45,189 nucleotides of DNA, from the IMG/VR virus record IMGVR_UViG_2617270960_000003, positions 1 to 45,189 of that record. One strand, 5' to 3'. The notes beneath the pieces are model-generated. The model did no database searches. It worked only from the letters and a program-made list of their open reading frames with translations, and was not told where the DNA came from. Position numbers and translations under genes: made by a program. Of the stretch, positions 4,387-43,816 are shown in pieces; the stretch's first letter is position 1; every line of letters begins with the position of its first letter. This stretch comes from a virus (taxonomy: Duplodnaviria > Heunggongvirae > Uroviricota > Caudoviricetes).

Positions 4387-7300
4387 CTAGCATCCAGCGC
4401 GGACGGTTAAAAATCTCAGACCATTGCGCGTCACTATCAACCGGCAGGACGAATAAATATCGTTATTCTCCCGCTCATGTTTAGCGCCGCAGAATGCCAC
4501 CGCTGGAATAACAATTTGCCTGTCAAAAGGCTGATCGTCATAAATCCTGACGGTGATGGTGCCACTGGCATAAGTGCCCGTCCGCGGGAAAGACTTACCC
4601 ACCGTTTTGACAATATCGCCTTCAATCTGATTGGCTGACAGTTTCCCCTTAATCTGACAGTTCTCATTAATCGTGACGTTGTTGAGCGTCCCGGAGTTCG
4701 CATTCACACTGCCACTGATATCCGCATTTTTAGCAGTCAGCTTTCCGTCCGGTGTCAGGGAAAATGCCGGTGGATTTCCACCGCTGGTAATGGTGGGGGC
4801 CGTCAGGCGTTTCAGGAACACGTCGTTCATGAATATCTGATCGCCCTGACCAACAAACATCGGTTTTGTGTTGCCATTCGCAGGATTAACCATCGCAATC
4901 CTGTCCGCCGCCAGCAGCACCTGACTCTGCATGCCGTCAGGGGTGTTCTCAATACCGACACCAATACCCGCGATATAAAGGCGTCCGTCCTGCATCTGCT
5001 GCAGCTTCACAGCCCACATGCTGTTCAGGTTATTATTTGTATCAACCTGAACCTTCTGTATCTGCTGAATTGCCGCACTCTGGTCTTCCAGTTTCTTATT
5101 GACGGTCTGCGTGATTTCATTGCTGACATCCGTAATGGACGTCCTGATTTCAGCCAGGTCAGGCGCAAGCTGACCGTTATCAATCTGCGTCCACAGCTCC
5201 TGAGCCAGATGGGTTTTCCCTATCTCGCCTTTGAAAAAATCCAGATAGCCGGATGCATCATCGCTCGCCCGACCGACGGCCTCCACAAATGCCGATTTGC
5301 CTACGGTGTTCACACTGCGGGTATAAAAGTAATAATCATGGCCCGGTTTGATATTGATACTGGCGGCTATCCAGTACAGCGCCGTACCAAGATAGCGGGC
5401 TGTGGTTTCAACCTGCCTGATATCCGCAATCCGCTTTTCCGAGAACCAGAACTCAAACTGTACCGTCGGATCATAAACCGCAAGATGCGGCGTGGCGGTT
5501 ATCTGAAAATAGCCCGGCGTCAGCTCAATCCGCGACGGCGCTGCCGGTGCGGCGATCCGGAACAATACCGATGCCGGATCGCCCTGCTGTCCCCATGCAT
5601 TTACCGCCCGGACTGTCAGCGTGTACCGCCCCAGCGCCAGCTGCGTGAAGCGATATGTGGTTTCCGTCGTCCGGGCCGTGCTGACCAACCGCTCACTGCC
5701 GTCGTCCGCTGCCACGGTCAGGCGCAGACTGAAGCGCACGCCCTTCACCACCCGCGGCGTGTCCCATTTAGCCTGCGCCAGATACTGGCCGTCAGCTGCG
5801 CTCACCTCCACCGTCAGGTGCTGTACTGCCGGTGGGATGACGCTGTTCAGGGAGCCTGACTGCGGCTCAAAGCGGGCACCGTTATCCACGATGGCTTCTT
5901 TTTCCGGTACGTGCTGCACCGCCGTGATGGCAAAGGTGCCGTCCGTGTTTTCCCGGATGGAGACACAGCGGAACAGGCGACGGCGCAGTGACGGCAGGGA
6001 GAGTCCCCACACCCCGTATGTCTCCACACCATCAGGCAGGGTACTGACCTGTATCCGGTCCGGCGCGGGGTGTTCGGTGATGTCCACACTCACCGGCTTA
6101 CCGCTGCCGTTAATCAGGTTCACCGTGGCGGCACCGGTCTCCGGCAGGGTAACCTCACGGTCCAGCGTCAGGGTGCGGGTGGCAGCATCAATGGACAGGA
6201 CACGTCCGCCGGTCAGGGTCCCGGCATAGTCATTATCACAGATTTCAATAATGTCACCGGGTGTGTGCCGCAGCCCCTGAGACCCGAGCGTGAAATCCAC
6301 CGTCTGCGTTTCCAGCAGTTCGGTCTTTATCACCCACAGTCCGGCACGGTGGGCCTGACCGCGGCTGGTACAGCCGAACGCGTCCATCTTCAGCAGATTG
6401 CGCCCGTAGCGCAGTATGGCTTCCGGGTCTTCCACCAGTTCCGTGGAGGTCTGCCAGCCGTTCTGCGGGTCGGTGTAATTCACCTCCACCGCCGTGTGCC
6501 GGTCCTTCAGGGCACTGAAGCTGTAGCGGAACCCCACGCCGTTATCATCCACCACCACATCGCTGTTGGTGTACGGCCACACCACATCCGACAGGCGGTC
6601 CTGAACAAACGTCAGCATCTGGCCGTTCCATACCGGCATACAGCGCATCGCCGAGCAGAAATCACTGAGAACATCCCACGCCTTACGCTGTTGTGCCAGG
6701 TACGCATTGAAGGTCATCCGCGGCTCGGTGCCCCCGAAGCCATCCGGCACCATCTGGTCGCAGTACTGCCCGATGGCATACAGCGCCCACTTGTCCACAT
6801 CCGCCGCCCCCAGACGTTTTCCCATGCCGTAGCGCGGGTGAGTCAGCATGTCCCACAGACACCAGGCCGGATTGTTGCTGTATGCCGGTTTCAGACTGCC
6901 GTCCCAGATACCACTGTACGTGCGTTTTTCCGGGTCATAGTTTGACGGCACCTGGATGATGCGACCGCGGATATGGTAGTTCACCGTCATCTGCTGACCA
7001 CCAAACTGCTCCGCATCCACCTGCATCCCCACAATGGCCGTGTTCGGGTAGCACTGTTTCACATCGATGATTTCGGTGTATGACGACCACAGCGTTCTGT
7101 TCTGCAGCTGGTCCGTGGTGCTGTCCGCCGTCTCCCTGACCATCCGGATGTTAAAGGGGCGGGGAGGCAGATTATCCAGAATCACCGAGGCCAGGAACTG
7201 TGAGGTGGTCTTGCCGTTAATGGTGACATCCTTTTCTGTCACCCAGTTACCGTTACGCTGTAACTGAATCAGCAGACGGACAGAGGACGGATTACGGTCA

Positions 7301-9954: not shown

Positions 9955-10283
9955 CAGTTCACCACCTGCTTAAACTCCGCGCTGAACTCAACGCGCAACA
10001 TCCCGACCCGCGCAGACCACCCGGCACAGGTCACCTTTATCTGCCGGTATGCATAGGGTGGCTTCCACAAAAATGCCTTCCAGCCACCGTGCTCTGCCAG
10101 AAACGACTCCAGCGCCGTGGCCTCCTCACGGGAGACAGACAGCGTCACGCTGTACGTTTTCAGGTCAGCGTTCAGCCCGGCAGGCGCACGCTGGGAATAG
10201 CCATCACCAAAGCGCACCTCCCTGACGGAAGGAGCCGATGTCACATCCATCCCGGGTTTCACTTTCCAGCGGAAGGTTTTCAT
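9954..10283 (-). CDS. M: minor tail protein M, 109 aa
   Basis: ORF track; size and position between H and L as in lambda. Confidence 0.85.
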   Translation of the reverse strand: MKTFRWKVKPGMDVTSAPSVREVRFGDGYSQRAPAGLNADLKTYSVTLSVSREEATALESFLAEHGGWKAFLWKPPYAYRQIKVTCAGWSARVGMLRVEFSAEFKQVVN

Positions 10284-12853
10284 CGTCCACCTCCGGAGAA
10301 CAGACCACCATCGCGCATCTGTGCCTGGATTTCATCACGGGCACCCTTGCGGGCCATGTCATACACCGCCTTCATCATCTGTGGACCTGGCAGACCATTC
10401 GTACCGTCGTTCTGAATCACCACGTGATTGTTCTGATTAAAATTAATGCCTTCGGCCCGCCGCATTTGCGCCGGACTTCCGGTGCCACCGACATAACCGC
10501 CGGTGGCATAGCCGCGCATCAACCGGTAGAGATTTCCCACGCCAATCCGGCTGGTTGCCTCCTTCGTGAAGACAAATTCACCACGGTGAACAATCCCCGC
10601 TGGCTCATATTTGCCGCCGGTTCCCGTAAATCCTCCGGTTGCAAAATGGAATTTCGCCGCAGCGGCCTGAATGGCTGTACCGCCTGACGCGGATGCGCCG
10701 CCACCAACAGCCCCGCCAATAGCGCTGCCGATACTCCCGACAATCCCCACCATTGCCTGCTTAAGCAGAATTTCTGTCATCATGGACAGCACGGAACGGG
10801 TGAAGCTGCGCCAGTTCTGTTCACTGCCGGTCAGCATCGCCGCCATATTCTGTGCAATACCATCAAAGGTCTGCGTGGCCGCGTTTTTAACCTGCGAAAA
10901 ACTGTCCGTCGCACTTTCCGCCCACTCGCCCCAGCCGGACTTCATCCCGGCCATCCAGCTTCCACGAAGCTGCTCCTCCGCAGACCAGGTGTTCTTCAGT
11001 GCCGATGTGGCCTTCGCCAGCGCAGCCGGATTATCACCGTACACCTCACGAAGGCGCTGCTCTTCCGACTCCCGCTGCGCCTGACGGTCGGTGAGGCCGC
11101 GGGCTTTTGCTCTGATTGCCGCCTGCTTCGCGCTTTGCTGCTGTTCAAACCGCGCCGCCTGCTGTGCCAGCTCATTCAGCCGCTTCTGGTGTTCAATCTT
11201 GTCTCCCAGCTCAGCCAGCTGGCGTTTGTACTCCAGCGTCTCTTTCTCATGAGCCAGCAGGGATTTTTCCTGCTCAGATAACTGCCGTTTCGTGGCGGCC
11301 TCTTTCAGGACCACATACTGATTTTCCGCTTTCCATAAATCACGGCGCTGCTGGCTGATTTTTTCATTCGCACCGCTGTGCTTCTCCAGCGTCCTGAGCT
11401 CAGTTTCAAGCGCCAGCAGGGCTGCATGCGCCTGGTCTTCCTGGCGCTCACCGGCAGACACCTTCACACCGGACGGCTTTTTCTGCGTCGACTCATAATC
11501 CTTTTTTGCCGACGCCATCAGCGTGTTGTAATCCGCCTGCAGGATTTTCCCGTCTTTCAGGGCCTTATTCAGCTCTTCCTGCCGGGCGGTATATTTCTCC
11601 AGTGGCGTCAGCAGGCGCTCATACGCCTTCTGCGCCTCTCCGGTATACTTCAGCTTTGACGACTCACGCTCAGCCCTGTCCCTTGCCGCCAGTTCACCGG
11701 CTTTTTCCATATCCGACTGCAGCGTTACCGCTGCCAGACCCAGACGGGCATTTTCCCGGTCATCCCATGCGCCCTGAAGGTTGGCACGAAAAGAGGCGGT
11801 TTTTCCCCGGCGCTGGCTCCGGCTCTGGTACCACTGCCATTTTTTATCCGCCTCATCAAATGCCTTCTGTGCACTGGCGAGCATATCCGCTGAGGACTCA
11901 GGACGACCGATATCCAGAATGGCATCCCACATCGATTTGAATGCCTTCCCTGTTTTATCCGCCCAGGTCTCCAGTGTTCCCATGTTTTCTTTCAGGCGAC
12001 GGGTCTGCTCATCAAAGCCTTTCGTGGCGATATCGTTCGCCGCCTGCAATGCCCCGGCCTCGTCTCCGGAACGCTGCAGCTGTGCAACATACGCAATCTG
12101 CTCTGCCGTCACGTTACGGAACTGGCGCGCCATCGCCATCAGTCCCGACGTCGGGTCAGTGGTCAGCTTCCCGAAGGCTTCAGCGACTTTATCCACCTCC
12201 ACACCGGATGCAGACGCAAAACGCGCGACACTCTGGTTGATGGCATCAAACTGTTCACCACCACGCACACCGGCATTCACCAGGGCTGCCAGTGACTCTC
12301 TCGCCTGGTTAAACGTCAGCCCTGCTGCCTGCCCGGCTCTTGAGAGAGTCAGCATACGATCGGCAGTCAGTCCGGACTGATTACCGGAAAGAACCAGGGT
12401 TTTATTAAACGCTGAAAGCGTGGAATCTCCCTGGTACCAGGCGTACACCAGCGCACCTGTCGCCACCGCCAGCGAGGTGACCCCGACCATCGGCAGGGTG
12501 ATCGCACCGGCGAGCCCCCTGAACATGGGGATCATCCCGCCGAAGGAGTCCTTCACCTGACCGCCCTGTTGCAGCAGGATCAGCCAGGGATTCTGACCAC
12601 CGGCAAGCTGCGTGGCGATATCCGTAAACTGTGCGGGCAGGGTTCGCATGGCCGCTTTATACTGCCCGACGGAAATCCCGGCTTTTTGTGCAGCCAGCGC
12701 CTGGCGGCTCAGGCCCTGTTCAACAGCACTGGCGGTTTTTCTGGCGTCGGTATCCAGACCTGAAAAATGACGCCTTACCCGGCTCATCTGCTCATCGAAA
12801 CGGACAGCATCCAGACTCAGGTCAATAACAAGATCACCAACCGGCTGGGACAT
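10280..12853 (-). CDS. H: tail tape measure protein H, 857 aa
   Basis: ORF track; near-collinear with lambda gpH (MSQPVGDLVIDLSLDAVRFDEQM... to ...DGGLFSGGGR). Confidence 0.9.
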   Translation of the reverse strand: MSQPVGDLVIDLSLDAVRFDEQMSRVRRHFSGLDTDARKTASAVEQGLSRQALAAQKAGISVGQYKAAMRTLPAQFTDIATQLAGGQNPWLILLQQGGQVKDSFGGMIPMFRGLAGAITLPMVGVTSLAVATGALVYAWYQGDSTLSAFNKTLVLSGNQSGLTADRMLTLSRAGQAAGLTFNQARESLAALVNAGVRGGEQFDAINQSVARFASASGVEVDKVAEAFGKLTTDPTSGLMAMARQFRNVTAEQIAYVAQLQRSGDEAGALQAANDIATKGFDEQTRRLKENMGTLETWADKTGKAFKSMWDAILDIGRPESSADMLASAQKAFDEADKKWQWYQSRSQRRGKTASFRANLQGAWDDRENARLGLAAVTLQSDMEKAGELAARDRAERESSKLKYTGEAQKAYERLLTPLEKYTARQEELNKALKDGKILQADYNTLMASAKKDYESTQKKPSGVKVSAGERQEDQAHAALLALETELRTLEKHSGANEKISQQRRDLWKAENQYVVLKEAATKRQLSEQEKSLLAHEKETLEYKRQLAELGDKIEHQKRLNELAQQAARFEQQQSAKQAAIRAKARGLTDRQAQRESEEQRLREVYGDNPAALAKATSALKNTWSAEEQLRGSWMAGMKSGWGEWAESATDSFSQVKNAATQTFDGIAQNMAAMLTGSEQNWRSFTRSVLSMMTEILLKQAMVGIVGSIGSAIGGAVGGGASASGGTAIQAAAAKFHFATGGFTGTGGKYEPAGIVHRGEFVFTKEATSRIGVGNLYRLMRGYATGGYVGGTGSPAQMRRAEGINFNQNNHVVIQNDGTNGLPGPQMMKAVYDMARKGARDEIQAQMRDGGLFSGGGR

Positions 12854-17229: not shown

Positions 17230-17286
17230 AAATCAGTTCCTTTCATTCAGAAATCAGTCAGGCCACCATGGTGGCCTGATAACGTG

Positions 17287-23802: not shown

Positions 23803-24870
23803 ATGAGTCAACATCAATATTATCCACAGCTGAAATGGAAGCCTGCTGAATATGAATCTCTGATGCTTTTAGATCAAACTACGCTCTCTGGTTTTACTCC
23901 GATCATTACCATTCCAGACATAGACTGGGATTATGAAAACGAATGCTACAAGAAGAGTTTGAGTTCTTACTTATCTGACTTCGGTATTAACCTTGCGGCA
24001 TCCTGGAAAGCCAATCGTCCTGTTTTGCTGGATGTTAAATATTTAGATAAACATGGTTCGAGCCGCCATCATCCTCTAGATATGTGTATCCAAGATGCTA
24101 GAGTAAATGGTAAGGAAATTATCCCTGTTGTTTCTCCCGCATATTCAACAAACTATATACATGCTGTTCAACGCAACTTAATCAATGGGCTCGCTATATC
24201 TATCACCCCCCAGACATGGCACCAATTCACAAGTCTGGTTAACCACTTAAATATTCATCCTAGTTTAATTGATGTAATCATTGATTTTGGAGATATTCAA
24301 AACGCAACTGATAGTTTAAAACAACAAGCATTAAGCATGGTCAACACATTATCAGGCCAAGCTCCGTGGAGAAACTTGATTTTATCTTCAACCGCATACC
24401 CGGCATCACAGGCAGGGATACCGCAACATCAAGTTCATCATATTCCGCGCCATGAATACGATCTTTGGATGTACGTAGTACAGAATTTTAGCAATGGAAG
24501 AACGCCAAGTTTTAGTGATTATCCCACCGCTAGCTCTACCATTACGAGCGTAGACCCACGCTTCATGTCTCAGTATGTCTCAGTGAGATATTCGAACGAT
24601 ACCTCATGGATCTTTGTAAAAGGTACCGCAGTTAAAGGAAATGGATGGGGCCAAACTAAAAACTTATGTACTACCCTTGTTAGTTCGCCAGAGTATCAAG
24701 TCTTTGGCTCCAAATTTAGTTGGGGGGATGATTACATTTACCAAAGATCATTAGGCGCTAACAAATCTGGCGGCTCTAAAGAATGGCGTAAAGTTGCACA
24801 TACGCACCATATTACGTTAGTCGTGAGACAGCTTTATTGGTTGGCGCAGACTCAGCCTGCCAAGCCTTAA
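23803..24870 (+). CDS. hypothetical protein, 355 aa; AT-rich cargo gene at the bor-equivalent locus
   Basis: ORF track; AAGGAG 7 nt upstream of ATG; low GC unlike the flanking phage genes; no confident homolog recalled. Confidence 0.6.
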   Translation: MSQHQYYPQLKWKPAEYESLMLLDQTTLSGFTPIITIPDIDWDYENECYKKSLSSYLSDFGINLAASWKANRPVLLDVKYLDKHGSSRHHPLDMCIQDARVNGKEIIPVVSPAYSTNYIHAVQRNLINGLAISITPQTWHQFTSLVNHLNIHPSLIDVIIDFGDIQNATDSLKQQALSMVNTLSGQAPWRNLILSSTAYPASQAGIPQHQVHHIPRHEYDLWMYVVQNFSNGRTPSFSDYPTASSTITSVDPRFMSQYVSVRYSNDTSWIFVKGTAVKGNGWGQTKNLCTTLVSSPEYQVFGSKFSWGDDYIYQRSLGANKSGGSKEWRKVAHTHHITLVVRQLYWLAQTQPAKP

Positions 24871-25432
24871 CTTTCCAGCCTACGCGTTTCTTTAAGGCTG
24901 TTCTGACTTCAGGCCTGAGATTCGCTATTGGAATATTTTCCGCAATAATATTCCATAACTCAAATCGGGGCTTGCTTTTGATTCCTTTGGAATAGCCCCA
25001 TCGTTCAAGTACGTCGATACATTCATCTTTCCAAAGCAATTGAGCGAGCATCAATGTGTCATGGTTTCGATTAAGCTTTTCTCCACGCATGTGCTTTATA
25101 AGAATGGCGCCTTTTGGCCCAACAGAAACCGTTTTAACGCCCCACCAACCTGGGATTAACTTTAATGCTCCCTCAAGGTGTTTCTCAGCTACGACAAGAG
25201 TAACCTTGTCCATTACAGAAGAATAATGCTTGATTTGAAGAGGCAAACGCTCCAAAGAGTCATATTCACTTTTGAGCTCGTACCCGTGTATAACACCATT
25301 TATTACAGCAATGTCTGCTCTACTGGCGCCAAGGGATATGGAAAATTCATCGACCACAAGGCAGTCTGGATCTAAATGCGATTCTTTCAAAAGCTTATGA
25401 TGCACCGCGAACCTAACATCTTGATCTTTCAT
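24812..25432 (-). CDS. hypothetical protein, 206 aa; possible PD-(D/E)xK-type nuclease fold; cargo partner
   Basis: ORF track; AAGGAGA 4 nt upstream of ATG; D...E.K pattern in VVDEFSISLGASRADIAVINGVIHGYELKSEYD; 3' end overlaps the convergent 355-aa gene by 59 bp. Confidence 0.55.
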   Translation of the reverse strand: MKDQDVRFAVHHKLLKESHLDPDCLVVDEFSISLGASRADIAVINGVIHGYELKSEYDSLERLPLQIKHYSSVMDKVTLVVAEKHLEGALKLIPGWWGVKTVSVGPKGAILIKHMRGEKLNRNHDTLMLAQLLWKDECIDVLERWGYSKGIKSKPRFELWNIIAENIPIANLRPEVRTALKKRVGWKVKAWQAESAPTNKAVSRLT

Positions 25433-26892: not shown

Positions 26893-27207
26893 CTAACAAC
26901 CCGTAATCGAGTTATCAGAACTGTTAATTTTTATGGTATACCGCGCCTCTGAACAGGGGCGCGTTTCTGGCAACAGCTCGTCCCCTTCACATAACCCGGC
27001 AGCAACATCCATGAAGACCTGTCTGATGCTCCTTCTGGCTGCTGCCTCATAAAACTCCAGCGCGGCACCTTCAACACGGTCCAGCGAGATGTCCAGGTCA
27101 AAAATTTCACCGTCAAAGCGTTTTTTGTCCCGTAACGCTAAAGTTACCGTAACTTTATTCTCAAAATTGCGGATCCCTTTCACAATCAGTTCATAGTTTT
27201 GAGTCAT
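26893..27207 (-). CDS. DUF1327-type protein (YdfR-like) between holin and endolysin, 104 aa
   Basis: ORF track; MTQNYELIVKGIRNFENKVTVT...FDGEIFDLD...VEGAALEFYEAAARRS resembles Qin-prophage YdfR as recalled; same essQ-ydfR-rrrQ arrangement. Confidence 0.6.
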   Translation of the reverse strand: MTQNYELIVKGIRNFENKVTVTLALRDKKRFDGEIFDLDISLDRVEGAALEFYEAAARRSIRQVFMDVAAGLCEGDELLPETRPCSEARYTIKINSSDNSITGC

Positions 27208-27577: not shown

Positions 27578-29431
27578 TTATGATGATGCTGGTGCATTTA
27601 TCTCCAGCACCAGACTTTCTATCTCAACGCCATACGCTGCATTTTTTGTAACATCCGTCAGCGTCAGCGCATTCAGCCCCAGTGTCAGACTGTCTTTTAT
27701 GACCTGGAATGCCGGGCCAGCCACTCCATTCAGTTTCGGAGTAACCGTGGCACTGCCGGCGGTGAACACCAGCTCCAGCGTCTGCCAGTCGTTACCGTAA
27801 TCGCCGAACTCCCCCAGCTTCGTGTTTCCGGCTTTCCTGTGATGCATCAGATTCACTCTGCCGTCAATGGTCTGAGTGAAGTAAGACATCAGGAACGGAT
27901 TACCAGTACCCGTCATCGCCACATCATCAGGAACGGGAGCGTCCGTATACAGATAAATCCCCAGCCCGAACTGATTGTTGGTCAGTGCGCCTGAGAGGCG
28001 GAACTTACAGGTCAGTCTGCCGCCCTGTGTCAGCAGGGTAATTGCGTCATCCACCGGATGCATCAGGTACCAGGTTTTATTGCTCTGCTTGGTGATCTTA
28101 AATACACCCTCTGACAACTGAATTCCGCCATTCTTAATGCTCCAGCCCTGCGCAGCAGCATCTCCGGCTGTCGGCAACAGGGAGATTGTGCGTACGGATG
28201 CATCTTCAGACGGCCCCGATGGCGTGTCGCCGCCGGGCGAGGGTTTGATTTCCGGTGCCTTACCACTAATGAAGGCTAAGGTGCGACCGGCTACGTTCAG
28301 AATAGCAGTTGCCATACGATCGGGAATAATGCCACGACGCGCCCATGAGCTGAAATGCGTCGGGCGATTTGATGATACCCAGTTTTTGTTCGTTCGGGAT
28401 GCCGAACCGTAATAACCAGACCCGACAATATCAGGATCTTCTGACGGGTTGTTTGTCGGTGTATTAACTCCGCTACCATCGGTCATAAAGGGAACAAAAT
28501 AAATCTGCTGGGATTCTTTACCTTTATATGCACCATATACCACTTCATATTGCGTACCGTGTTCTTGTTTCCACGCGTATGTCGTGTCGCCACAAATCCA
28601 GGGGACTGATGCCGGACTTCCACCGTGACACTGCGCCGCCAGCCCGGCAAGGTCAGCACGGAACTGCTGTACCATTGCAAGAAATGCTGCTGGCTGCTGG
28701 GCGTAACTGGCATTCGTCATATCGAATTCCCCCTGCATCCAGCATATCGCCAGCAAAACGTTTTTCGGGTTTTTCTGCAATGCTGCCTTCGTGCGGAAAA
28801 GCAGATCCTGATATAACGGCTTACCCACTCCCCAGCGAGCCGAATCCTGACTGGCCCCCGTGGACTCGCTGAATGTCCCCTCCGTGCCCTTGGTGAATGC
28901 CGAACCACCACGACAGCATGGTACCAGCAGGATCCCCGCATTATTAGGGATATACGGAAGCAGTTTTTTGGCAATATGTAAGCCCTGTCCGACACAACCG
29001 TACTGCCCTTTGCTCAGGTCAGCCCGGGGATGGTTAATCGTACTCATATCCTGAACATCATGCAGACAATGGTCAGCAGGAATGATGTCGTTAAATACGC
29101 ATACTTCGCCACCGGGAGTCACTGTGTTACGACGGGCCAGTTGCTTAATGCGCGGATGGGGCGCATCGTATGAATCCGGAAGCGGAAGCCCTTCACCGTA
29201 AGCCATGGCATTGGACTGCCCGGCCAGTACGATGACGTAGTACCACTCCGGCTCAGTTGCACCACTGACGACCACATCACCTTCTGCTGCAATCGCCTGC
29301 ATCAGGGTATAAGGGGTTATGGCCACCGGACTACCAAACGGCTGCCAGCCCTCTTTCAGTTTATGTGTCAGCTTTTCCGCAAGATCTGACGGCGACGCCG
29401 CCCTGACAACATCATAGTGTTTAAATGCCAT
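27578..29431 (-). CDS. nanS: prophage 9-O-acetyl sialic acid esterase NanS-p (DUF1737 N-terminus plus SGNH/SASA esterase domain), about 617 aa
   Basis: N-terminus MAFKHYDVVRAASPSDLAEKLT.KLKEGWQPFGSPVA matches NanS-p of Stx/lambdoid prophages as recalled; lies upstream of the lysis cassette. Confidence 0.8.
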   Translation of the reverse strand: MAFKHYDVVRAASPSDLAEKLTHKLKEGWQPFGSPVAITPYTLMQAIAAEGDVVVSGATEPEWYYVIVLAGQSNAMAYGEGLPLPDSYDAPHPRIKQLARRNTVTPGGEVCVFNDIIPADHCLHDVQDMSTINHPRADLSKGQYGCVGQGLHIAKKLLPYIPNNAGILLVPCCRGGSAFTKGTEGTFSESTGASQDSARWGVGKPLYQDLLFRTKAALQKNPKNVLLAICWMQGEFDMTNASYAQQPAAFLAMVQQFRADLAGLAAQCHGGSPASVPWICGDTTYAWKQEHGTQYEVVYGAYKGKESQQIYFVPFMTDGSGVNTPTNNPSEDPDIVGSGYYGSASRTNKNWVSSNRPTHFSSWARRGIIPDRMATAILNVAGRTLAFISGKAPEIKPSPGGDTPSGPSEDASVRTISLLPTAGDAAAQGWSIKNGGIQLSEGVFKITKQSNKTWYLMHPVDDAITLLTQGGRLTCKFRLSGALTNNQFGLGIYLYTDAPVPDDVAMTGTGNPFLMSYFTQTIDGRVNLMHHRKAGNTKLGEFGDYGNDWQTLELVFTAGSATVTPKLNGVAGPAFQVIKDSLTLGLNALTLTDVTKNAAYGVEIESLVLEINAPASS

Positions 29432-29691
29432 GGTTCTTTCCACCATCTGAAAAATGATTCTTTAAAATACCTGACATGTAATACAGAAAAAAAACAAAAC
29501 CATACCTTAAATAAAAACCTCATCATCAAGCAGATATGCATGGATAAACTACAAGACGAGATATAAACCACCCTGCATTTAAATAAACAATAAACAACAT
29601 CAGAAAAATAATTCTGCTCTATGGTTTACAATCAAAAATATCATTTATACTTTTCAGAACATCACCAGCAAGGCATAAACAAGGAAACTAA

Positions 29692-30027: not shown

Positions 30028-30060
30028 GGAGTTTACTCACATCTGACAAAATCAATATAA

Positions 30061-30300
30061 ACAGCCCCTCCGGAGAGGGGCTGGAGAGTGGCGCTATGTG
30101 CCATTGCATGGTGCCGGGTGCCTCCCGGTGAATTCAGTACCAGCACCTGAATCCGCGATTATCCCATATACCTACTCGCTGATTGCCCCTCCGCACAGGG
30201 GGATTCACCATGCGAAATTTTTTAACAAACTTCCCGCTGGCCAGACAATAATCGCCAGCCTGAATTATGAGCAACGTAGCATTTTACGGGAAAACTGTTT
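30061..30300. repeat. copy 1 of a diverged ~240-bp direct repeat beginning with hairpin AGCCCCTCCGGAGAGGGGCT
   Basis: Shared blocks with copy 2: agcccctccggagaggggctg, gcatggtgcc.ggtgcctcccggt.aattcag, gggggattcaccatgcga, ttttaacaaa, cagacaat. Confidence 0.6.
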
Positions 30301-30520
30301 TCTGCAGTAAAAAGGCCCGCCGGAGCGAGCCTGGAAGGATAGCGGTCATGTGATGCCGGTTTCCCGGTAACTCAGCATCGGTATCTGAGTCAACGTTTTC
30401 TCTACTGGGTCATTTCCGATACGTTCCGCCTTCCGGCAGACTTTCATCACGTCAGAAAATATAGCACCCTGAGTAACAGGACAGTACTCAGAATTCAGGA
30501 AACTGTGACACATCCTGCAC

Positions 30521-30760
30521 AGAAAAGCCCCTCCGGAGAGGGGCTGAAGTATAGCCTAATTTCTGTCTGTCGCATGGTGCCAGGTGCCTCCCGGTAAATT
30601 CAGCCTGTCTACTGAATTTGCATGTTCTCTGGATCATACACTTTGCCAGATGCCCCGCCGCTGAGGGGGATTCACCATGCGATGTAATTTTTAACAAATT
30701 CTCCGGCAGCCAGACAATCATCAAGCTGTGGAATTGTGAGGTATTTAAAAATTTCAACGG
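30521..30760. repeat. copy 2 of the diverged ~240-bp direct repeat
   Basis: Same shared blocks as copy 1; on the minus strand each hairpin is followed by a T-rich run (terminator-like). Confidence 0.6.
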
Positions 30761-30975: not shown

Positions 30976-31052
30976 TGGACCGCCATCGAGAACTCGAACC
31001 CCGCGCAACCAGCTTCGAAGGCTGGCGCTCTATCCCGATGAGCTAATGGCGG
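30976..31052 (-). tRNA. tRNA-Arg (anticodon UCG)
   Basis: Hand-folded cloverleaf: acceptor CCGCCAT/ATGGCGG, D-stem GCTC/GAGC, anticodon stem CCAGC/GCTGG with loop CTTCGAA, T-loop TTCGAGT (T-stem has two G-U pairs), 3' CCA. Confidence 0.6.
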
Positions 31053-31059
31053 TATGTGA

Positions 31060-31135
31060 TGGTGGCCCTTGCTGGATTTGAACCAGCGACCTGGCGATTA
31101 TGAGTCGCTCGCTCTCACCACTGAGCTAAAGGGCC
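31060..31135 (-). tRNA. ileZ: tRNA with CAU anticodon, ileX/ileZ-like (tRNA-Ile2 or Met)
   Basis: Minus-sense GGCCCTTTAGCTCAGTGGTGAGAGCGAGCGACTCATAATCGCCAGGTCGCTGGTTCAAATCCAGCAAGGGCCACCA; canonical cloverleaf; near-identical to E. coli ileX as recalled. Confidence 0.8.
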
Positions 31136-35507: not shown

Positions 35508-35663
35508 TTACTCCTCAGGTTCGTAAACTGTGAAGACAGCGACCTCCGTCTGGCCGGTTCGGATTCGTACCTCGCAGAGGTCTTTCCTCGTTACCAGTAC
35601 AGTCACAATGACGGTTAAACAGATGACGATCAGGGCGATTAACATCGCCTTTTGCTGCTTCAT
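35508..35663 (-). CDS. hok: Hok/Gef family type I toxin, 51 aa
   Basis: MKQQKAMLIALIVICLTVIVTVLVTRKDLCEVRIRTGQTEVAVFTVYEPEE is near-identical to HokD/RelF as recalled. Confidence 0.85.
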   Translation of the reverse strand: MKQQKAMLIALIVICLTVIVTVLVTRKDLCEVRIRTGQTEVAVFTVYEPEE

Positions 35664-35899
35664 AGCCTGCTTCTCCTTGCCTTTCGGCACGTAAGAGGCT
35701 AACCTAGATTTGCCGTTCATAGATTGAGCCTCAGATTAATGTTAAGCGTCTTGCAGGACGCATAATGTTAACTGTGGCTTTTCTCTATCTGCCTTTGGTG
35801 TTCATGCTTGAGGCAGATAGCCTCAAGCACCCGCAGCAATTTTACTTAACTCCCCTTTTCCCACAAATCGTTTTTATCCCTATTGGTAATGTTCTCCCG

Positions 35900-35916
35900 A
35901 TGTGGGATTCCCACAT
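35900..35916. promoter_or_regulatory. perfect 17-bp palindrome ATGTGGGATTCCCACAT upstream of the kinase operon (candidate operator)
   Basis: Read directly; about 160 bp upstream of the kinase start in the AT-rich intergenic region. Confidence 0.4.
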
Positions 35917-36072
35917 TGGAACGAATTCAATCAGTTAAAGACTCATCAGAATCTCACCTTTCTAAGTGCCCACAGGTGAGGCATTGCAATAAAAATAGCA
36001 AACGTGTATAAAAGGAGGTAATGCATGTTTTTCCAGTCTTATCAATCCATTACTGAGAGTTAAGGGGGCGCC

Positions 36073-36867
36073 GTGGATCGGTGCGGTAATTATTTACTTA
36101 AAGATGGTCGCAGTTTAGGACAAGGGAGTTTTGGCGAAGTATTTAAGGTTGATGTCTATAACTTAACCCAGACCCACATGACCACATATGCTCGCAAATA
36201 CTTTTCACCTTGCCCGGACTTTGACAAGACCGCTATAAAAGAGTTGACTGATTTAAGACAGCGTTTTTTAGTTGAGATCAAAACACAATGCACTCTCAAT
36301 AGAATAAACTATGATTCAATAGCGCCAATAGTTTTATTTAATACAAATGGTGATAAACCTTATTTTGTTATGGAATTGGCAGAGTGTAACTTATATGAAG
36401 CCATCCGCAATGGTATGAATTACGCGGAGAGGAAGTCTGCTGTTACTCAGATTTTAAAAGGAATTATCACCATACATGAAAACAACTATATACATCGTGA
36501 TTTAAAACCAGGAAACATACTTTATTATGCCGATGGAAAGTATAAAATATCTGATTTTGGTCTAGTAAAAGACAGAGATACCTTACGGGCCGAAATCAAA
36601 ACAAAATTTAAGCCTAATCACATGGGCACAGATGGATATCGAGCACCCGAAATACATGATAGCGGTCTTTTTTCTTTTCAAAGCGACATATTTGCAGCAG
36701 GTAAAATTATCACTGATATATATCCCACAGAAAGAAGTGAAAAATTAAAAAGATTGATTGCAAAATGTTGCGCACATTGGCCTGAAGAACGATATCAAAG
36801 CACACGGGAGTTACTGGAAGATTTTTTAAAAGTGACGGGGGAGGTAAATCATGAAGAACATAATTGA
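36073..36867 (+). CDS. Hanks-type (eukaryotic-like) Ser/Thr protein kinase, 264 aa, GTG start
   Basis: ORF track; Gly-rich loop LGQGSFGEV, catalytic loop HRDLKPGNIL, DFG (ISDFGLV), APE (YRAPEI); AAGGGGG 4 nt upstream of GTG; AT-rich. Confidence 0.85.
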   Translation: MDRCGNYLLKDGRSLGQGSFGEVFKVDVYNLTQTHMTTYARKYFSPCPDFDKTAIKELTDLRQRFLVEIKTQCTLNRINYDSIAPIVLFNTNGDKPYFVMELAECNLYEAIRNGMNYAERKSAVTQILKGIITIHENNYIHRDLKPGNILYYADGKYKISDFGLVKDRDTLRAEIKTKFKPNHMGTDGYRAPEIHDSGLFSFQSDIFAAGKIITDIYPTERSEKLKRLIAKCCAHWPEERYQSTRELLEDFLKVTGEVNHEEHN

Positions 36868-37567
36868 AATGGCATGTTTTAGCCTAAAACAACCCCAAAA
36901 AAAAGAAAATGAAGACTTTTATTTACCGCCATCTTTTGATAGCGATTTTAACATTGTCTTTGCAGTAGCTGATGGGGTTGGTTCCTCTGAACATTCAATG
37001 CTTGCATCTCATGCAGCCATTCGTGGCATTAGACACACGCTAGGCACTTCCTTTTTCTCAATTGAAAGTGCATTTCATTCAGCTAAAAAAGAAATTGACA
37101 ATTTAGATATTAGCACTGCCACAACCTTAACAATTGTTCAGATCAAAAAAAATGAAGTGTTAATTGGTCATTCCGGTGATTGCCGAGTATACTTCAATAA
37201 AAACAATAAACTAAATCAGTTAACCACTGATCAAACGAGATATCAAGAACTCCTTGATTCTGGTGAACATAAATTACGTAATTTAAGAAATCATAAAGAA
37301 CGGCTATCTTCAGTCCTAACGAATGCTTTATCAAATACAACGGATTTGAATTTTGAGTTAATGTCTTTTCCGATTAGCCAGCTAATTTATAATGGCTATC
37401 TTCAACTCTATGCAATGACTGATGGTGCCTATAAGCATTGGGATGTCAGACCAAGGTTTTCTGAGAAGACAATGCTCTCACCAACAGCTTTTGCGAGTAG
37501 TTTAAGAAAAAGGATTGAGAAAAATATAATGGATGATTACACCTTTATAGGCGTAAAAGTAACCTAA
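36851..37567 (+). CDS. PP2C-family Ser/Thr phosphatase, 238 aa
   Basis: ORF track; FAVADGVGSSE, GHSGDCRVY and MTDGAY motifs; GGGGGAGG upstream; start overlaps kinase 3' end by 17 nt. Confidence 0.8.
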   Translation: MKNIIEMACFSLKQPQKKENEDFYLPPSFDSDFNIVFAVADGVGSSEHSMLASHAAIRGIRHTLGTSFFSIESAFHSAKKEIDNLDISTATTLTIVQIKKNEVLIGHSGDCRVYFNKNNKLNQLTTDQTRYQELLDSGEHKLRNLRNHKERLSSVLTNALSNTTDLNFELMSFPISQLIYNGYLQLYAMTDGAYKHWDVRPRFSEKTMLSPTAFASSLRKRIEKNIMDDYTFIGVKVT

Positions 37568-37826
37568 TTTTAGATATCCAAGATATTTACTCTAATTTAA
37601 CCATAGTATTCCCAACCTCTTTTTATTGGGGGTTGGGTTCATTAAAGTCACCATTTTCTATTTCTTTCCCGTTAGAGGATATATTATTTCCAGATAAAGA
37701 AAGCAACTTCTTATGCAACTTCATATCACGCCATGCTTCCACCGCGGTAACTCTACATAGTCCATTAACAGTTCATGCCATTCTTCAAAACTGGCGTTAT
37801 ATTTAGTTGAAGCAAAATCAGCCATT

Positions 37827-41067: not shown

Positions 41068-41493
41068 TTAGTGCATCACCACAGCATTCCCTGCCGGGCC
41101 GCCGCGATTCATCTGGTCATACAAAACAACCGCTGACGCAACAAAATCATCGACATCCTTCACCAGCCGATCCCTCCGTTCGACGATCTCACGGTAATAT
41201 TCAGAACTGTGGCTGCGCATACGGGCCACCAGCAAAGGCGGCATCGCCTTTTCGATCGCCGGTAACAGAGCCTGCATTTTTTCAACAGCATCAGGGGTGT
41301 CTTTATCCAGCCAACGGAAAATTTTCTGGGTATTACGGGCCAGGGCTTCCGGATGGCTGTCGTCGTACAGTTCAGGGAACGTCATCCCCAGTTCGAAATA
41401 AGTCCGGGCTATTTCAGCTGCAGGAACTTTCTCACCATCAGGGTATGCCCAGGCATTCATCGCCATGCGGATGTGCTCATGTTTGATTTTCAT
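41068..41493 (-). CDS. YdaT-like protein (cII position), 141 aa
   Basis: ORF track; N-terminus MKIKHEHI as recalled for Rac YdaT; position after the Cro-like gene. Confidence 0.5.
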   Translation of the reverse strand: MKIKHEHIRMAMNAWAYPDGEKVPAAEIARTYFELGMTFPELYDDSHPEALARNTQKIFRWLDKDTPDAVEKMQALLPAIEKAMPPLLVARMRSHSSEYYREIVERRDRLVKDVDDFVASAVVLYDQMNRGGPAGNAVVMH

Positions 41494-41800
41494 GAATCAT
41501 TTGCCTCTTGATGCTTCGGGTATGATCGTTTTCGTCATTTGGTTGCTTCATCGACATATTCTGCGAATAACATGACGAGCGTCGTAAGTATGTCCAATCA
41601 ACATCAGGACGAAGTTCTTCACACAGGACACCACCTTTTGTTGCTCGTTCAATCGCAGGACATCTCTCAGCAGGTAACTGACGTACACCTTTGATCCATT
41701 GATTTACGCTTGGAGGAGATACACCTAAAAGCCTAGCCATTGCTGATTGCCCACCGACAACAGCACAAGCTCGTTTGAATGAATAGTTATCTTTTTTCAT
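41477..41800 (-). CDS. Cro-like HTH regulator (YdaS-like), 107 aa from internal ATG
   Basis: GGAG upstream of ATG at 41798-41800; HTH-like AMARLLGVSPPSVNQWIKG; divergent from the repressor gene. Confidence 0.6.
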   Translation of the reverse strand: MKKDNYSFKRACAVVGGQSAMARLLGVSPPSVNQWIKGVRQLPAERCPAIERATKGGVLCEELRPDVDWTYLRRSSCYSQNMSMKQPNDENDHTRSIKRQMIHENQT

Positions 41801-41829
41801 CGAATGAACTCCAAAAAACACGCAACAAT

Positions 41830-41872
41830 ATTAGGCTTAGCCTAATGAAATTGTCAATAGGCTATGCCTAAT
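41830..41872. promoter_or_regulatory. right operator/promoter region between repressor and cro-like genes
   Basis: Perfect 17-bp palindrome ATTAGGCTTAGCCTAAT (41830-41846) plus 22-bp site TTGTCAATAGGCTATGCCTAAT (41851-41872), repeated inverted at 42495-42516. Confidence 0.55.
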
Positions 41873-41924: not shown

Positions 41925-42401
41925 ATGCTTAGTGGTAAAGACTTAGGCCGAGCGATAGAGCAGGCCATTAACAAAAAAATTGCATCAGGAGCCGTCAAAT
42001 CAAAGGCGGAAATCGCACGTCATTTCAAAGTCCAACCACCATCAATCCATGACTGGATTAAGAAAGGTTCGATAAGTAAAGACAAACTTCCAGAACTATG
42101 GCGTTTCTTTTCTGATGTGGTTGGTCCAGAGCATTGGGGGCTTAACGAATACCCCATACCAACCCCATCCACTTCAGATACAAAAAGTGAACTTTTAGAC
42201 ATAAACAGCCTTTATCAAGCCGCCTCTGATGAAAAAAGAGCAATTGTGGCTTTCATCTTATCTGGAAATGCTACGGAGCCTAGTTGGGTTGATCATGACG
42301 TTCGCGCCTACATTGCCGCAATGGAAATGAAGGTAGCTAACTATCTGAAAAATCAAGAATCAAAACGGAAAAGCCAGAACATCACCAAGACAGGAACTTA
42401 A
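41925..42401 (+). CDS. prophage repressor (RacR-like HTH), 158 aa
   Basis: ORF track; HTH-like SKAEIARHFKVQPPSIHDWIKKG; divergent from cro-like gene and flanked by operator repeats; same size as Rac RacR as recalled. Confidence 0.65.
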   Translation: MLSGKDLGRAIEQAINKKIASGAVKSKAEIARHFKVQPPSIHDWIKKGSISKDKLPELWRFFSDVVGPEHWGLNEYPIPTPSTSDTKSELLDINSLYQAASDEKRAIVAFILSGNATEPSWVDHDVRAYIAAMEMKVANYLKNQESKRKSQNITKTGT

Positions 42402-43248: not shown

Positions 43249-43816
43249 TAGCTAACCAACGAAGCTAAGGTTGGTAATTAAGGAGTTCTCCACGGGTGAG
43301 GTGGAGTGCGTGCGCCGGACACGGGTGAGCATCCGGCACTGACAGTTTACTGAAAGGATATTTCCCTGAAAAGTCAGACCATAACGCGAAAGCGCACGGC
43401 GAGGTAGCTGGTTCATAGATAGCCTGTCGTTAAATTTTCGTCGACCGTGCGCTTCCGGTTGTGGCAATCCGCGAAATGGCGCGGCGGTAAGTATGGCGGG
43501 GTTATTCCTTCCACCGTTGAGGACACTGGGTTGTCAGGTTGACCATACGCTTAAGTGACAACCCCGCTGCAACGCCCTCTGTTATCAATTTTCTGGTGAC
43601 GTTTGGCGGTATCAGTTTTACTCCGTGACTGCTCTGCCGCCCTTTTTAAAGTGAATTTTGTGATGTGGTGAATGCGGCTGAGCGCACGCGGAACAGTTAA
43701 AACCAAAAACAGTGTTATGGGTGGATTCTCTGTATCCGGCGTTAATTGTTAACTGGTTAACGTCACCTGGAGGCACCAGGCACTGCATCACAAAATTCAT
43801 TGTTGAGGACGCGATA

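Follow-up and report, generated by a model that had tools for sequence, protein, structure and literature searches.

A compact Hanks-type kinase/PP2C phosphatase gene pair carried as prophage cargo in Escherichia coli: a candidate anti-phage module

Introduction

In the KKP system, the gene of the PP2C phosphatase PfpC is followed by those of two kinases, PfkA with a cold-shock domain (CSD) and PfkB with an FHA domain (Guo et al. 2024, PMC11341870). Toxicity requires both kinases and is relieved by the catalytic action of the phosphatase. The module occurs in Pf, P2, P4 and Mu-like prophages. Its trigger is the T4 replication protein Gp59, which inhibits the phosphatase and leads to growth arrest. 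In Pseudomonas, KKP also governs Pf lysogeny via phosphorylation of MvaU, a protein of the H-NS family (all PMC11341870). Here we analyse a smaller arrangement, one Hanks-type Ser/Thr kinase gene followed by one PP2C gene, found in 45,189 nucleotides of DNA of a virus of the Caudoviricetes (IMG/VR record IMGVR_UViG_2617270960_000003, positions 1 to 45,189). This whole stretch is hereafter called the window.

The pair had been noticed in a reading made from the letters of the DNA alone (the sequence-only reading), which took it for a toxin/antitoxin-like or abortive-infection module with a kinase effector and a cognate phosphatase brake. In type VII toxin-antitoxin (TA) systems, such as HepT/MntA and TglT/TakA, the antitoxin is an enzyme that renders the toxin harmless by modifying it chemically. 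A kinase can also act in exclusion, as reported for the prophage kinase Stk of 933W, which excludes HK97 (Friedman et al. 2011, cited in PMC9122126).

Results

The kinase and PP2C genes form an obligate, mobile unit

Relatives were collected with either protein. The kinase-based set comprised 81 loci, namely 80 IMG/VR viral contigs and one Pseudomonas genome. In all 81, a family PP2C gene was located on the same strand within 300 nt downstream of the kinase gene. The gap between the two genes was -13 to +27 nt in 78 of these loci, and one gene was interrupted in the remaining three. The reverse search with PP2C gave intact pairs at 71 of 79 loci, the remainder being a decayed kinase or a cut at a contig end. 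Identity of the pair among relatives ranged from 100% down to about 33%. The kinase and PP2C genes form an obligate, mobile two-gene unit, and the view that they belong together is borne out by the PP2C gene that follows the kinase at every kinase-found locus.

The protein searches delineated a compact family in Gammaproteobacteria. At 90% identity it comprises about 85 clusters of the kinase and about 100 of PP2C; at 50% identity, about 25 clusters of PP2C stand apart before the scores blend into generic PP2Cs. The pair occurs in Enterobacterales, Vibrionaceae, Aeromonas, Acinetobacter and Pseudomonas, in prophages, P4 satellites and small islets. The kinase profile search of genome contigs was swamped by generic Hanks kinases (HRDLKPxNI pattern) and recovered one true relative, in Pseudomonas koreensis (L004). 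A fused kinase-PP2C protein of the "Rosetta stone" type, hinted at by phrog_5650 (a 565-position profile with PP2C at 273-517), was considered and rejected, since an exhaustive profile search found no such form among close relatives.

Within E. coli, the pair segment was present in 33 of 5426 complete genomes, always on the chromosome, with at least 99% identity in 29. The carriers are mostly Shiga toxin-producing (STEC) and porcine enterotoxigenic (ETEC) lineages and include O145:H28, O103:H2, O157:H7, O45:H2 and O121. An identical kinase sequence was found on at least 1000 public contigs; no near-identical DNA was found in the phage collection.

Decay of the pair was uneven. A truncated or frameshifted kinase beside an intact PP2C was found in five independent cases (L226, L227/228, L184=L100, L189=L097 and L154), and the converse in one (L087=L182). 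This 5:1 asymmetry, in small numbers, is as expected from a toxin-like kinase with a protective phosphatase. In the converse case the kinase is intact and PP2C carries two -1 frameshifts. The PP2C gene of the window holds two A8 tracts; both are A7 in the L087 copy (4507-4513 and 4754-4760). This double change could be a sequencing error or slipped-strand inactivation.

The predicted products are a minimal kinase and a minimal phosphatase

The kinase matched Pfam Pkinase (PF00069; E=1.4e-31, 110.3 bits against a cut-off of 31.7, residues 11-215) and phrog_2361, "serine-threonine kinase" (E=2.6e-51). Its motifs are LGQGSFGEV (15-23), K42, E68, HRDLKPGN (141-148), DFG (161-163) and APE (191-193), of which HRDLKPGN is a Ser/Thr-type catalytic loop. 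Among 56 homologues, G16, G18, G21, V23, K42, E68, H141-R142-D143, N148, D161-F162-G163 and A191-P192-E193 are invariant or at least 90% conserved, and D205 and R240 are likewise invariant or nearly so. The AlphaFold2 (AF2) model of the kinase (pLDDT 89.5, pTM 0.88) gave Foldseek TM-scores of 0.7-0.79 to many kinase domains. Only kinase-domain Pfam families were matched, and the model has nothing beyond the kinase core; its sole low-confidence internal part is the activation loop. RD kinases are usually switched on by phosphorylation of this loop.

PP2C scored 41.5 bits with PP2C_2 (cut-off 24) and E=8.6e-19 with NCBIfam Stp1_PP2C. Its metal-ligand motifs are NED (D22), ADGVG (D41/G42), GDCR (D110), TDG (D191) and DD (D228/D229), and the metal residues align to the motifs of PstP. 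In 66 homologues, D22, D41-G42, D110, D127, D191-G192 and D228-D229 (motifs 1, 2, 8 and 11) are invariant. The AF2 model (pLDDT 94.1) had TM-scores of 0.75-0.78 to PstP (1txo), tPphA (2j86) and Stp1 (5f1m).

Profile scores, conserved residues and modelled folds agree for both proteins. The complete Hanks motif set (G-loop, HRDLKPGN, DFG, APE) and the PP2C motifs claimed in the sequence-only reading are thus confirmed by the profile search and structure prediction that it had proposed, and the two open reading frames (ORFs) code for a full Hanks-type Ser/Thr kinase domain and a full PP2C domain, each with its catalytic residues complete. RefSeq labels in O103:H2 strain 12009 are the same in kind: "serine/threonine protein kinase" (WP_000373318.1) and "PP2C family protein-serine/threonine phosphatase" (WP_000789359.1). 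Both proteins lack transmembrane, sensor, FHA, CSD, PASTA and DNA-binding domains.

The unit resides in cargo, TA and antiviral hotspots

The pair of the window occupies the nin region. Lambdoid relatives use two other slots. The first is directly after the Q antiterminator, with RusA and an HNH/DUF968 gene upstream and methylase or lysis genes downstream. The second is directly after the Rz spanin and before the small terminase, as in Escherichia phage Flotzy, Cronobacter phage phiES15 and a Xenorhabdus prophage. Other relatives were found in an integrase and Mob_Pre islet in Vibrio, in an integrase island beside mutS in Kosakonia, and in small variable islets in Acinetobacter and Aeromonas. 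The relative in Enterobacter asburiae adjoins TacA/TacT, and that in Dickeya dadantii adjoins YafN/YafO.

P4-like satellites in E. coli, Klebsiella, Enterobacter and Salmonella carry a version of the pair with 82-84% identity in the interval from psu to int (Table 1). The P4 psu-int locus has been shown experimentally to be a reservoir of antiviral systems (Rousset et al., PMC9122126); the accessions of the pair were not found among the rows listed in the hotspot tables of that study. The sites of the unit in prophages and satellites are thus hotspots for cargo, TA and antiviral genes.

Three further observations concern these contexts. The P2 hotspot listing of Rousset et al. 2022 contains a kinase (WP_029392161) followed by a PP2C (WP_029392160), after a DUF3850/ASCH gene and a hypothetical gene; this different kinase/PP2C entry may or may not belong to the family of the pair. 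Many Salmonella entries in the protein cluster of the P4 version are fragments ("partial"), which may be contig breaks or decay. In Aeromonas, a DUF4760 gene comes 7 nt behind the pair and may be an accessory third gene in that lineage; DUF4760 is also among the P2-hotspot cassettes of Rousset et al.

The pair is an AT-rich insertion in a Qin-like prophage

The window is a Qin/lambda-like E. coli prophage in which nearly all genes are on the minus strand. These include the tail, head and terminase Nu1 genes, the lysis cassette, the NanS-p-like esterase, the tRNAs, the DNA methylase, Q, RusA, DUF968, hok/sok, the nin-region and replication genes and the YdaS/Cro-like gene. The neighbouring long ORFs are likewise on the minus strand and the pair on the plus strand. 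The opposite-strand layout described from sequence alone therefore stands for the window; as a family trait it does not, being confined to this E. coli lineage. The position between hok and the nin/early genes was also described correctly, with hok/sok on the left and DUF7167/nin genes on the right, and so was relBE beside hokD in Qin: in K-12 Qin, relE-relB directly adjoins hokD, on the side that matches the cargo slot of the window.

The composition profile gave a GC content of 0.33-0.37 over both ORFs against about 0.50 on either flank, in agreement with their reported AT-richness. In a pair-less E. coli prophage with matching flanks (strain H106, L171), homology stops at 35879 and restarts at 37736, and the foreign segment is therefore that between these two positions. 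The claim of horizontally acquired AT-rich cargo is supported by this relative, which defines an inserted low-GC segment.

Transcription and translation signals

A block of about 95 nt starting near 35980 travels with the two genes, as judged from a 92% relative (L098) and a P4-borne 82% relative (L091). Both hexamers of a sigma-70-like promoter candidate (Table 1) are kept in the two relatives, and the sequence farther upstream is unrelated. The consensus promoter scan missed this candidate because its rule requires T at position 6 of the -10 hexamer. At the other end, the hairpin behind PP2C is kept in L098 with changes in both arms. Its T-run is weak, and the terminator scan made no call. 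We tentatively regard it as a candidate operon terminator, or as an insulator against the convergent phage early transcript. The best explanation of the segment is a self-contained moron with its own promoter, a short leader, the kinase gene, the PP2C gene and the hairpin.

The start codon is GTG in all seven distinct clade-1 kinases and ATG in 35 of 36 PP2Cs, the latter with a GGAGG-type Shine-Dalgarno sequence. The better initiation signals of PP2C across the family would fit a phosphatase made in excess. The two genes overlap by 17 nt, the PP2C ORF beginning within the 3' end of the kinase gene. Their translational coupling, as proposed earlier, is plausible; on the other hand, PP2C has its own GGAGG 6 nt before its ATG. 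No special constraint on the 5' end of the kinase gene was seen, identity to the 82% relatives there (0.82-0.84) being the gene average, and a hairpin at its start codon was rejected with a fold z-score of only -0.7.

A 12-codon mini-ORF (MFFQSYQSITES) stands behind a strong AGGAGG and ends 9 nt before the kinase GTG. The predicted transcription start would coincide with its Shine-Dalgarno sequence or lie inside it. A role as conserved leader peptide was not supported: both its start and its stop shift in L098 and L091.

A perfect 17-bp palindrome upstream of the pair had been singled out in the sequence-only reading. It exists, 157-173 nt upstream of the kinase start, but it is statistically unremarkable and not a conserved operator. 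The window has six perfect palindromes of this class where 1.5 would be expected, and the PP2C gene contains two of the six. Palindrome ATGTGGGATTCCCACAT is degraded in L098, which has the same flank, and has no counterpart in L091 or in 30 other relatives. As an operator of the module it was rejected on these grounds, and judged from these comparisons it is probably not functional in that role. Of the further perfect palindromes, ATTAGGCTTAGCCTAAT lies between the YdaS/Cro-like gene and a divergent 158-aa ORF and is a plausible candidate for a repressor operator. The 22-bp palindrome TCAGGCCACCATGGTGGCCTGA lies between two head-region genes, and a third is listed in Table 1.

Other features of the prophage

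A gene for Beta protein (Pfam PF14350, E=8e-56; PADLOC PD-Lambda-2_C, 4e-32, and beta, 3.5e-10) is convergent with a cII-like gene (PADLOC Gop-beta-cII "cll", 3.8e-31). These two genes, between the lysis cassette and terminase Nu1, constitute a second candidate anti-phage moron in the same prophage, and their post-lysis slot is one held by kinase/PP2C relatives in other phages. The DicF antisense small RNA (sRNA; Rfam, 76.7 bits) identifies an immunity and early-left region of the Qin/dicB type. The STnc100 sRNA is present in two tandem copies, which are, like two tRNA genes, downstream of Q and the methylase, where Stx phages have their stx region; no stx genes were found in this prophage, including the region downstream of Q. 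The tRNA/STnc100 region is followed by a NanS-p-like sialate esterase gene (SASA/DUF6645).

Table 1. Positions of the kinase/PP2C pair, its surroundings and other features. Numbers refer to the window unless another record is named.
Feature	Position	Strand	Remarks
Kinase gene	36073-36867	+	Minimal Hanks-type (RD-class) Ser/Thr kinase, 264 aa; GTG start; AAGGGGG Shine-Dalgarno
PP2C gene	36851-37567	+	Minimal PP2C/PPM Ser/Thr phosphatase, 238 aa; ATG start; GGAGG at 36840-36844
A8 tracts in PP2C gene	36897-36904; 37145-37152		
Cargo segment	35880-37735	+	About 1.86 kb; GC 0.33-0.42; between hok/sok and DUF7167/nin-region genes
hok/sok locus	35508-35832		Complete; Pfam HOK_GEF; Rfam sok 35658-35832; left neighbour of cargo
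Palindrome ATGTGGGATTCCCACAT	35900-35916		Perfect, 8+1+8, 17 bp; 21 nt inside left cargo boundary
Promoter candidate	35984-36012	+	Sigma-70-like, TTGCAA-17 nt-TATAAA; read from sequence
Mini-ORF	36025-36063	+	
Hairpin	37611-37637	+	10 bp, GC-rich; 44 nt past PP2C stop; RNA fold
P4 psu-int copies of pair	L253-L255, 7001-8494; NZ_CP148277.1, 3400233-3402832		
DUF4760 gene, Aeromonas	L256/L257, 8590-9237		
Palindrome TCAGGCCACCATGGTGGCCTGA	17258-17279		
Beta protein gene	23803-24870	+	
cII-like gene	24812-25432	-	
Third further perfect palindrome	27139-27157		
NanS-p-like esterase gene	27578-29446		
STnc100 sRNA, two copies	30053-30241; 30517-30710	-	
tRNA genes, two	30979-31135	-	
YdaS/Cro-like gene	41477-41821	-	
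Palindrome ATTAGGCTTAGCCTAAT	41830-41846		
158-aa ORF	41925-42401	+	
DicF sRNA	43591-43642	+	

Discussion

A phosphorylation-based switch as the preferred interpretation

We propose that the pair is a phosphorylation-based, TA-like anti-phage switch acting in abortive infection or exclusion, with the kinase as effector, PP2C as its enzymatic brake, and an infecting phage that tips the balance. We put the chances that this proposal is right at about even. The expression of the operon in the lysogen, the toxicity of the kinase, the phosphatase brake, the trigger and the anti-phage outcome are what we infer. In a lysogen, the operon would be expressed from a sigma-70-type promoter of its own, with a transcript antisense to the early-right operon of the phage. 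The RD-type Hanks kinase would require phosphorylation of its activation loop, and the co-expressed and better translated PP2C would hold the kinase and its substrates dephosphorylated, allowing normal growth. On entry of a heterologous phage, a phage product might inhibit or titrate PP2C, or host shut-off might alter the kinase:phosphatase ratio. The kinase would then run away and phosphorylate many host and/or phage proteins, and growth and phage development would stop. In TA terms, the kinase would be a toxin-like effector and PP2C an enzymatic, type-VII-like antitoxin. Circumstantial backing comes from the P4 hotspot, the TacAT and YafNO neighbours, the relBE slot of Qin and the asymmetric decay. 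The complete catalytic residues, the obligate pairing, the movement between cargo slots, the second candidate defence moron of the prophage, the translation signals and the precedent of KKP also speak for it.

Several facts weigh against this proposal. The similarity to the KKP of the E. coli P4 hotspot is at the superfamily level only, with 22-29% identity for the kinases and E=0.009 for PP2C. The search of a defence-system catalogue suggested in the sequence-only reading was made with PADLOC; it returned partial matches for the kinase and none for PP2C. The kinase matches do not go beyond the generic kinase domain: PD-T4-6 (E 1.2e-32) is covered at 16-202 of 327, Stk2 (E 2.6e-25) at 162-360 of 500 and mad6 at 54-246 of 659. 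A full-text search of open-access papers and preprints yielded no publication that describes the pair. Both proteins lack a sensor or DNA-binding domain that could detect infection. The L087 copy implies that the kinase alone is tolerated, unless its frameshifts are a sequencing error. Finally, most relatives are co-directional with the late genes, just behind Q or the lysis cassette. Such a late-gene placement would mean expression in lytic growth and fits a role for the benefit of the phage equally well.

A bolder version of the switch is a long shot in our estimation. In it, the pair would be a minimal, sensor-less immune switch of two enzymes with PP2C as the guard, and phage proteins that bind or inhibit PP2C would set the kinase free. 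In polylysogenic STEC, this switch might also determine the phosphorylation of nucleoid or SOS-related host proteins and so affect the induction of co-resident Stx prophages and toxin output. If true, it would be a new compact defence family apart from KKP that ties prophage-prophage competition to virulence.

Other interpretations

It is worth considering that the pair may serve lysogenic-conversion signalling, not immunity. It would set the phosphorylation of host regulators, for example nucleoid-associated or stress proteins, and would tune host physiology or the induction of its own or co-resident prophages, including Stx phages in STEC. The control of Pf lysogeny by KKP through the H-NS family protein MvaU is a precedent, the operon has its own candidate promoter antisense to lytic transcription, and the pair is common in the polylysogenic STEC O145:H28, O103:H2, O157:H7, O45:H2 and O121 and is also found outside phages. 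However, no specific target is predictable, and the pair moves freely among unrelated elements and hosts, from Vibrio to Acinetobacter and Pseudomonas, which disfavours dependence on one host regulator. The P4 psu-int and TA-adjacent sites point to conflict functions instead. We consider this interpretation rather unlikely.

The late-gene placement of most relatives bears on another possibility, that of an accessory or anti-defence function in the lytic cycle. Here the kinase would phosphorylate host proteins so that the phage takes the cell over or disarms its defences, and the phosphatase would limit self-damage or reverse the action of host defence kinases. Genes directly downstream of Q or the lysis genes and co-directional with them would be read from the late promoter, and a kinase of phage T7 reportedly phosphorylates proteins pervasively and thereby disarms bacterial defences (PMC13645617). 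Nevertheless, the operon in the window is antisense to the phage transcription units and has its own candidate promoter, family members are also found in non-phage islets and P4 satellites, and Q-proximal and post-lysis genes are often morons expressed in the lysogen. A lytic role appears improbable.

Pure addiction, in which post-segregational killing would stabilise the prophage or satellite in the manner of hok/sok with no anti-phage role, is suggested by the neighbouring hok/sok, by the slot that holds relBE in Qin and by a decay that favours retention of PP2C. Addiction requires an unstable antitoxin, however, and nothing marks the globular 238-aa PP2C (pLDDT 94) as labile. Many TA systems in such slots prove defensive, and the P4 psu-int hotspot is enriched in antiviral systems (PMC9122126). 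We regard pure addiction as quite doubtful.

Silent hitch-hiking cargo, repressed by H-NS and without phenotype in E. coli, is very improbable: a GC content of 0.33-0.37 in a background of 0.50 is of the order typical of xenogeneically silenced DNA and the carriers are just 33 of 5426 complete E. coli genomes, but both frames are intact and at least 99% identical over 29 genomes of different serotypes, the catalytic residues are invariant family-wide, and the exact kinase sequence recurs on at least 1000 contigs.

If the proposed phospho-switch works, the pair would be the smallest known kinase/phosphatase conflict module, without the CSD and FHA adaptors that KKP needs, and a clean system to study how a Hanks kinase is restrained and then freed upon infection. 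The pair occurs in major STEC lineages, where prophage-prophage interference bears on the biology of Stx phages. With current defence catalogues, the kinase would at best be given the wrong label, PD-T4-6 or mad6, and the phosphatase would be missed altogether. If the pair has no phenotype, it would be just another annotated kinase/PP2C moron.

Comparison with known systems

933W Stk resembles the kinase of the pair in being of the eukaryotic type and in coming from a lambdoid prophage of STEC, from which Stk is expressed. Unlike the pair, Stk is the product of a single 348-aa gene in the cI/pM operon (10104-11150, downstream of cI) with no phosphatase. Orthology was rejected: identity is 27% over residues 104-258 (C-lobe) only, HFD stands for HRD, and tblastn gave no match between 933W Stk and the kinase at E<1e-5. 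Staphylococcal Stk2 and PD-T4-6 of E. coli share with the pair a Hanks-type kinase as presumed effector, whereas they are single-gene systems with extra C-terminal regions and no partner phosphatase. The view of the sequence-only reading that the pair is neither 933W Stk nor Stk2 is supported, firmly for 933W Stk. The pair is probably also distinct from Stk2, PD-T4-6 and mad6: the E-values are strong, but the matches are confined to the kinase domain, and the pair has an obligate PP2C partner.

The best sequence and structure matches of both proteins are the housekeeping Stk1/Stp1-type pairs (PknB/PstP, PrkC/PrpC) of Gram-positives; for the kinase these are NCBIfam PknB_PASTA_kin, PDB 4eqm and StkP. 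The NCBIfam scores are far under the equivalog cut-offs (88.9 against 450 and 68 against 230). The genes of such pairs are also adjacent, and are co-transcribed in Gram-positives, but there the phosphatase precedes the kinase, the kinase is a membrane receptor with PASTA domains, and both are core chromosomal genes.

The pair follows the logic of type VII TA systems, being an operon of two genes whose protective partner would be an enzyme that acts on the toxic partner or its products. It differs in the proposed chemistry, dephosphorylation of a Hanks kinase and its substrates, and there is no homology. A classical type II TA operon was rejected, as neither protein has a helix-turn-helix (HTH), ribbon-helix-helix (RHH) or AbrB domain and the upstream palindrome is not conserved.

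With KKP the pair shares a prophage- or satellite-borne operon that combines Hanks-type Ser/Thr kinase(s) with a PP2C, and a location in cargo regions; KKP occupies the same P4 and P2 hotspots as relatives of the pair, and the KKP used for the sequence comparison came from the tables of Rousset et al. It differs from KKP in having two genes in the order kinase-PP2C, in contrast to three in the order PP2C-kinase-kinase, and in encoding bare catalytic domains of 264 and 238 aa with neither a CSD (GFI/A motif) nor FHA, PfpC being about 390 aa. Membership in KKP was rejected on gene number, gene order, the CSD and FHA domains and the superfamily-level similarity. Novelty is below the estimate of the sequence-only reading because KKP has already established the concept of a prophage kinase/phosphatase system. 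KKP is the closest characterised system, serves as the template for the proposed mechanism and shows that the logic of a kinase braked by PP2C works; the pair is outside KKP. It is an architectural variant of the kind that KKP recently established, not a categorically new one, and as such it is a compact, widespread, uncatalogued and experimentally tractable candidate defence module in important pathogens.

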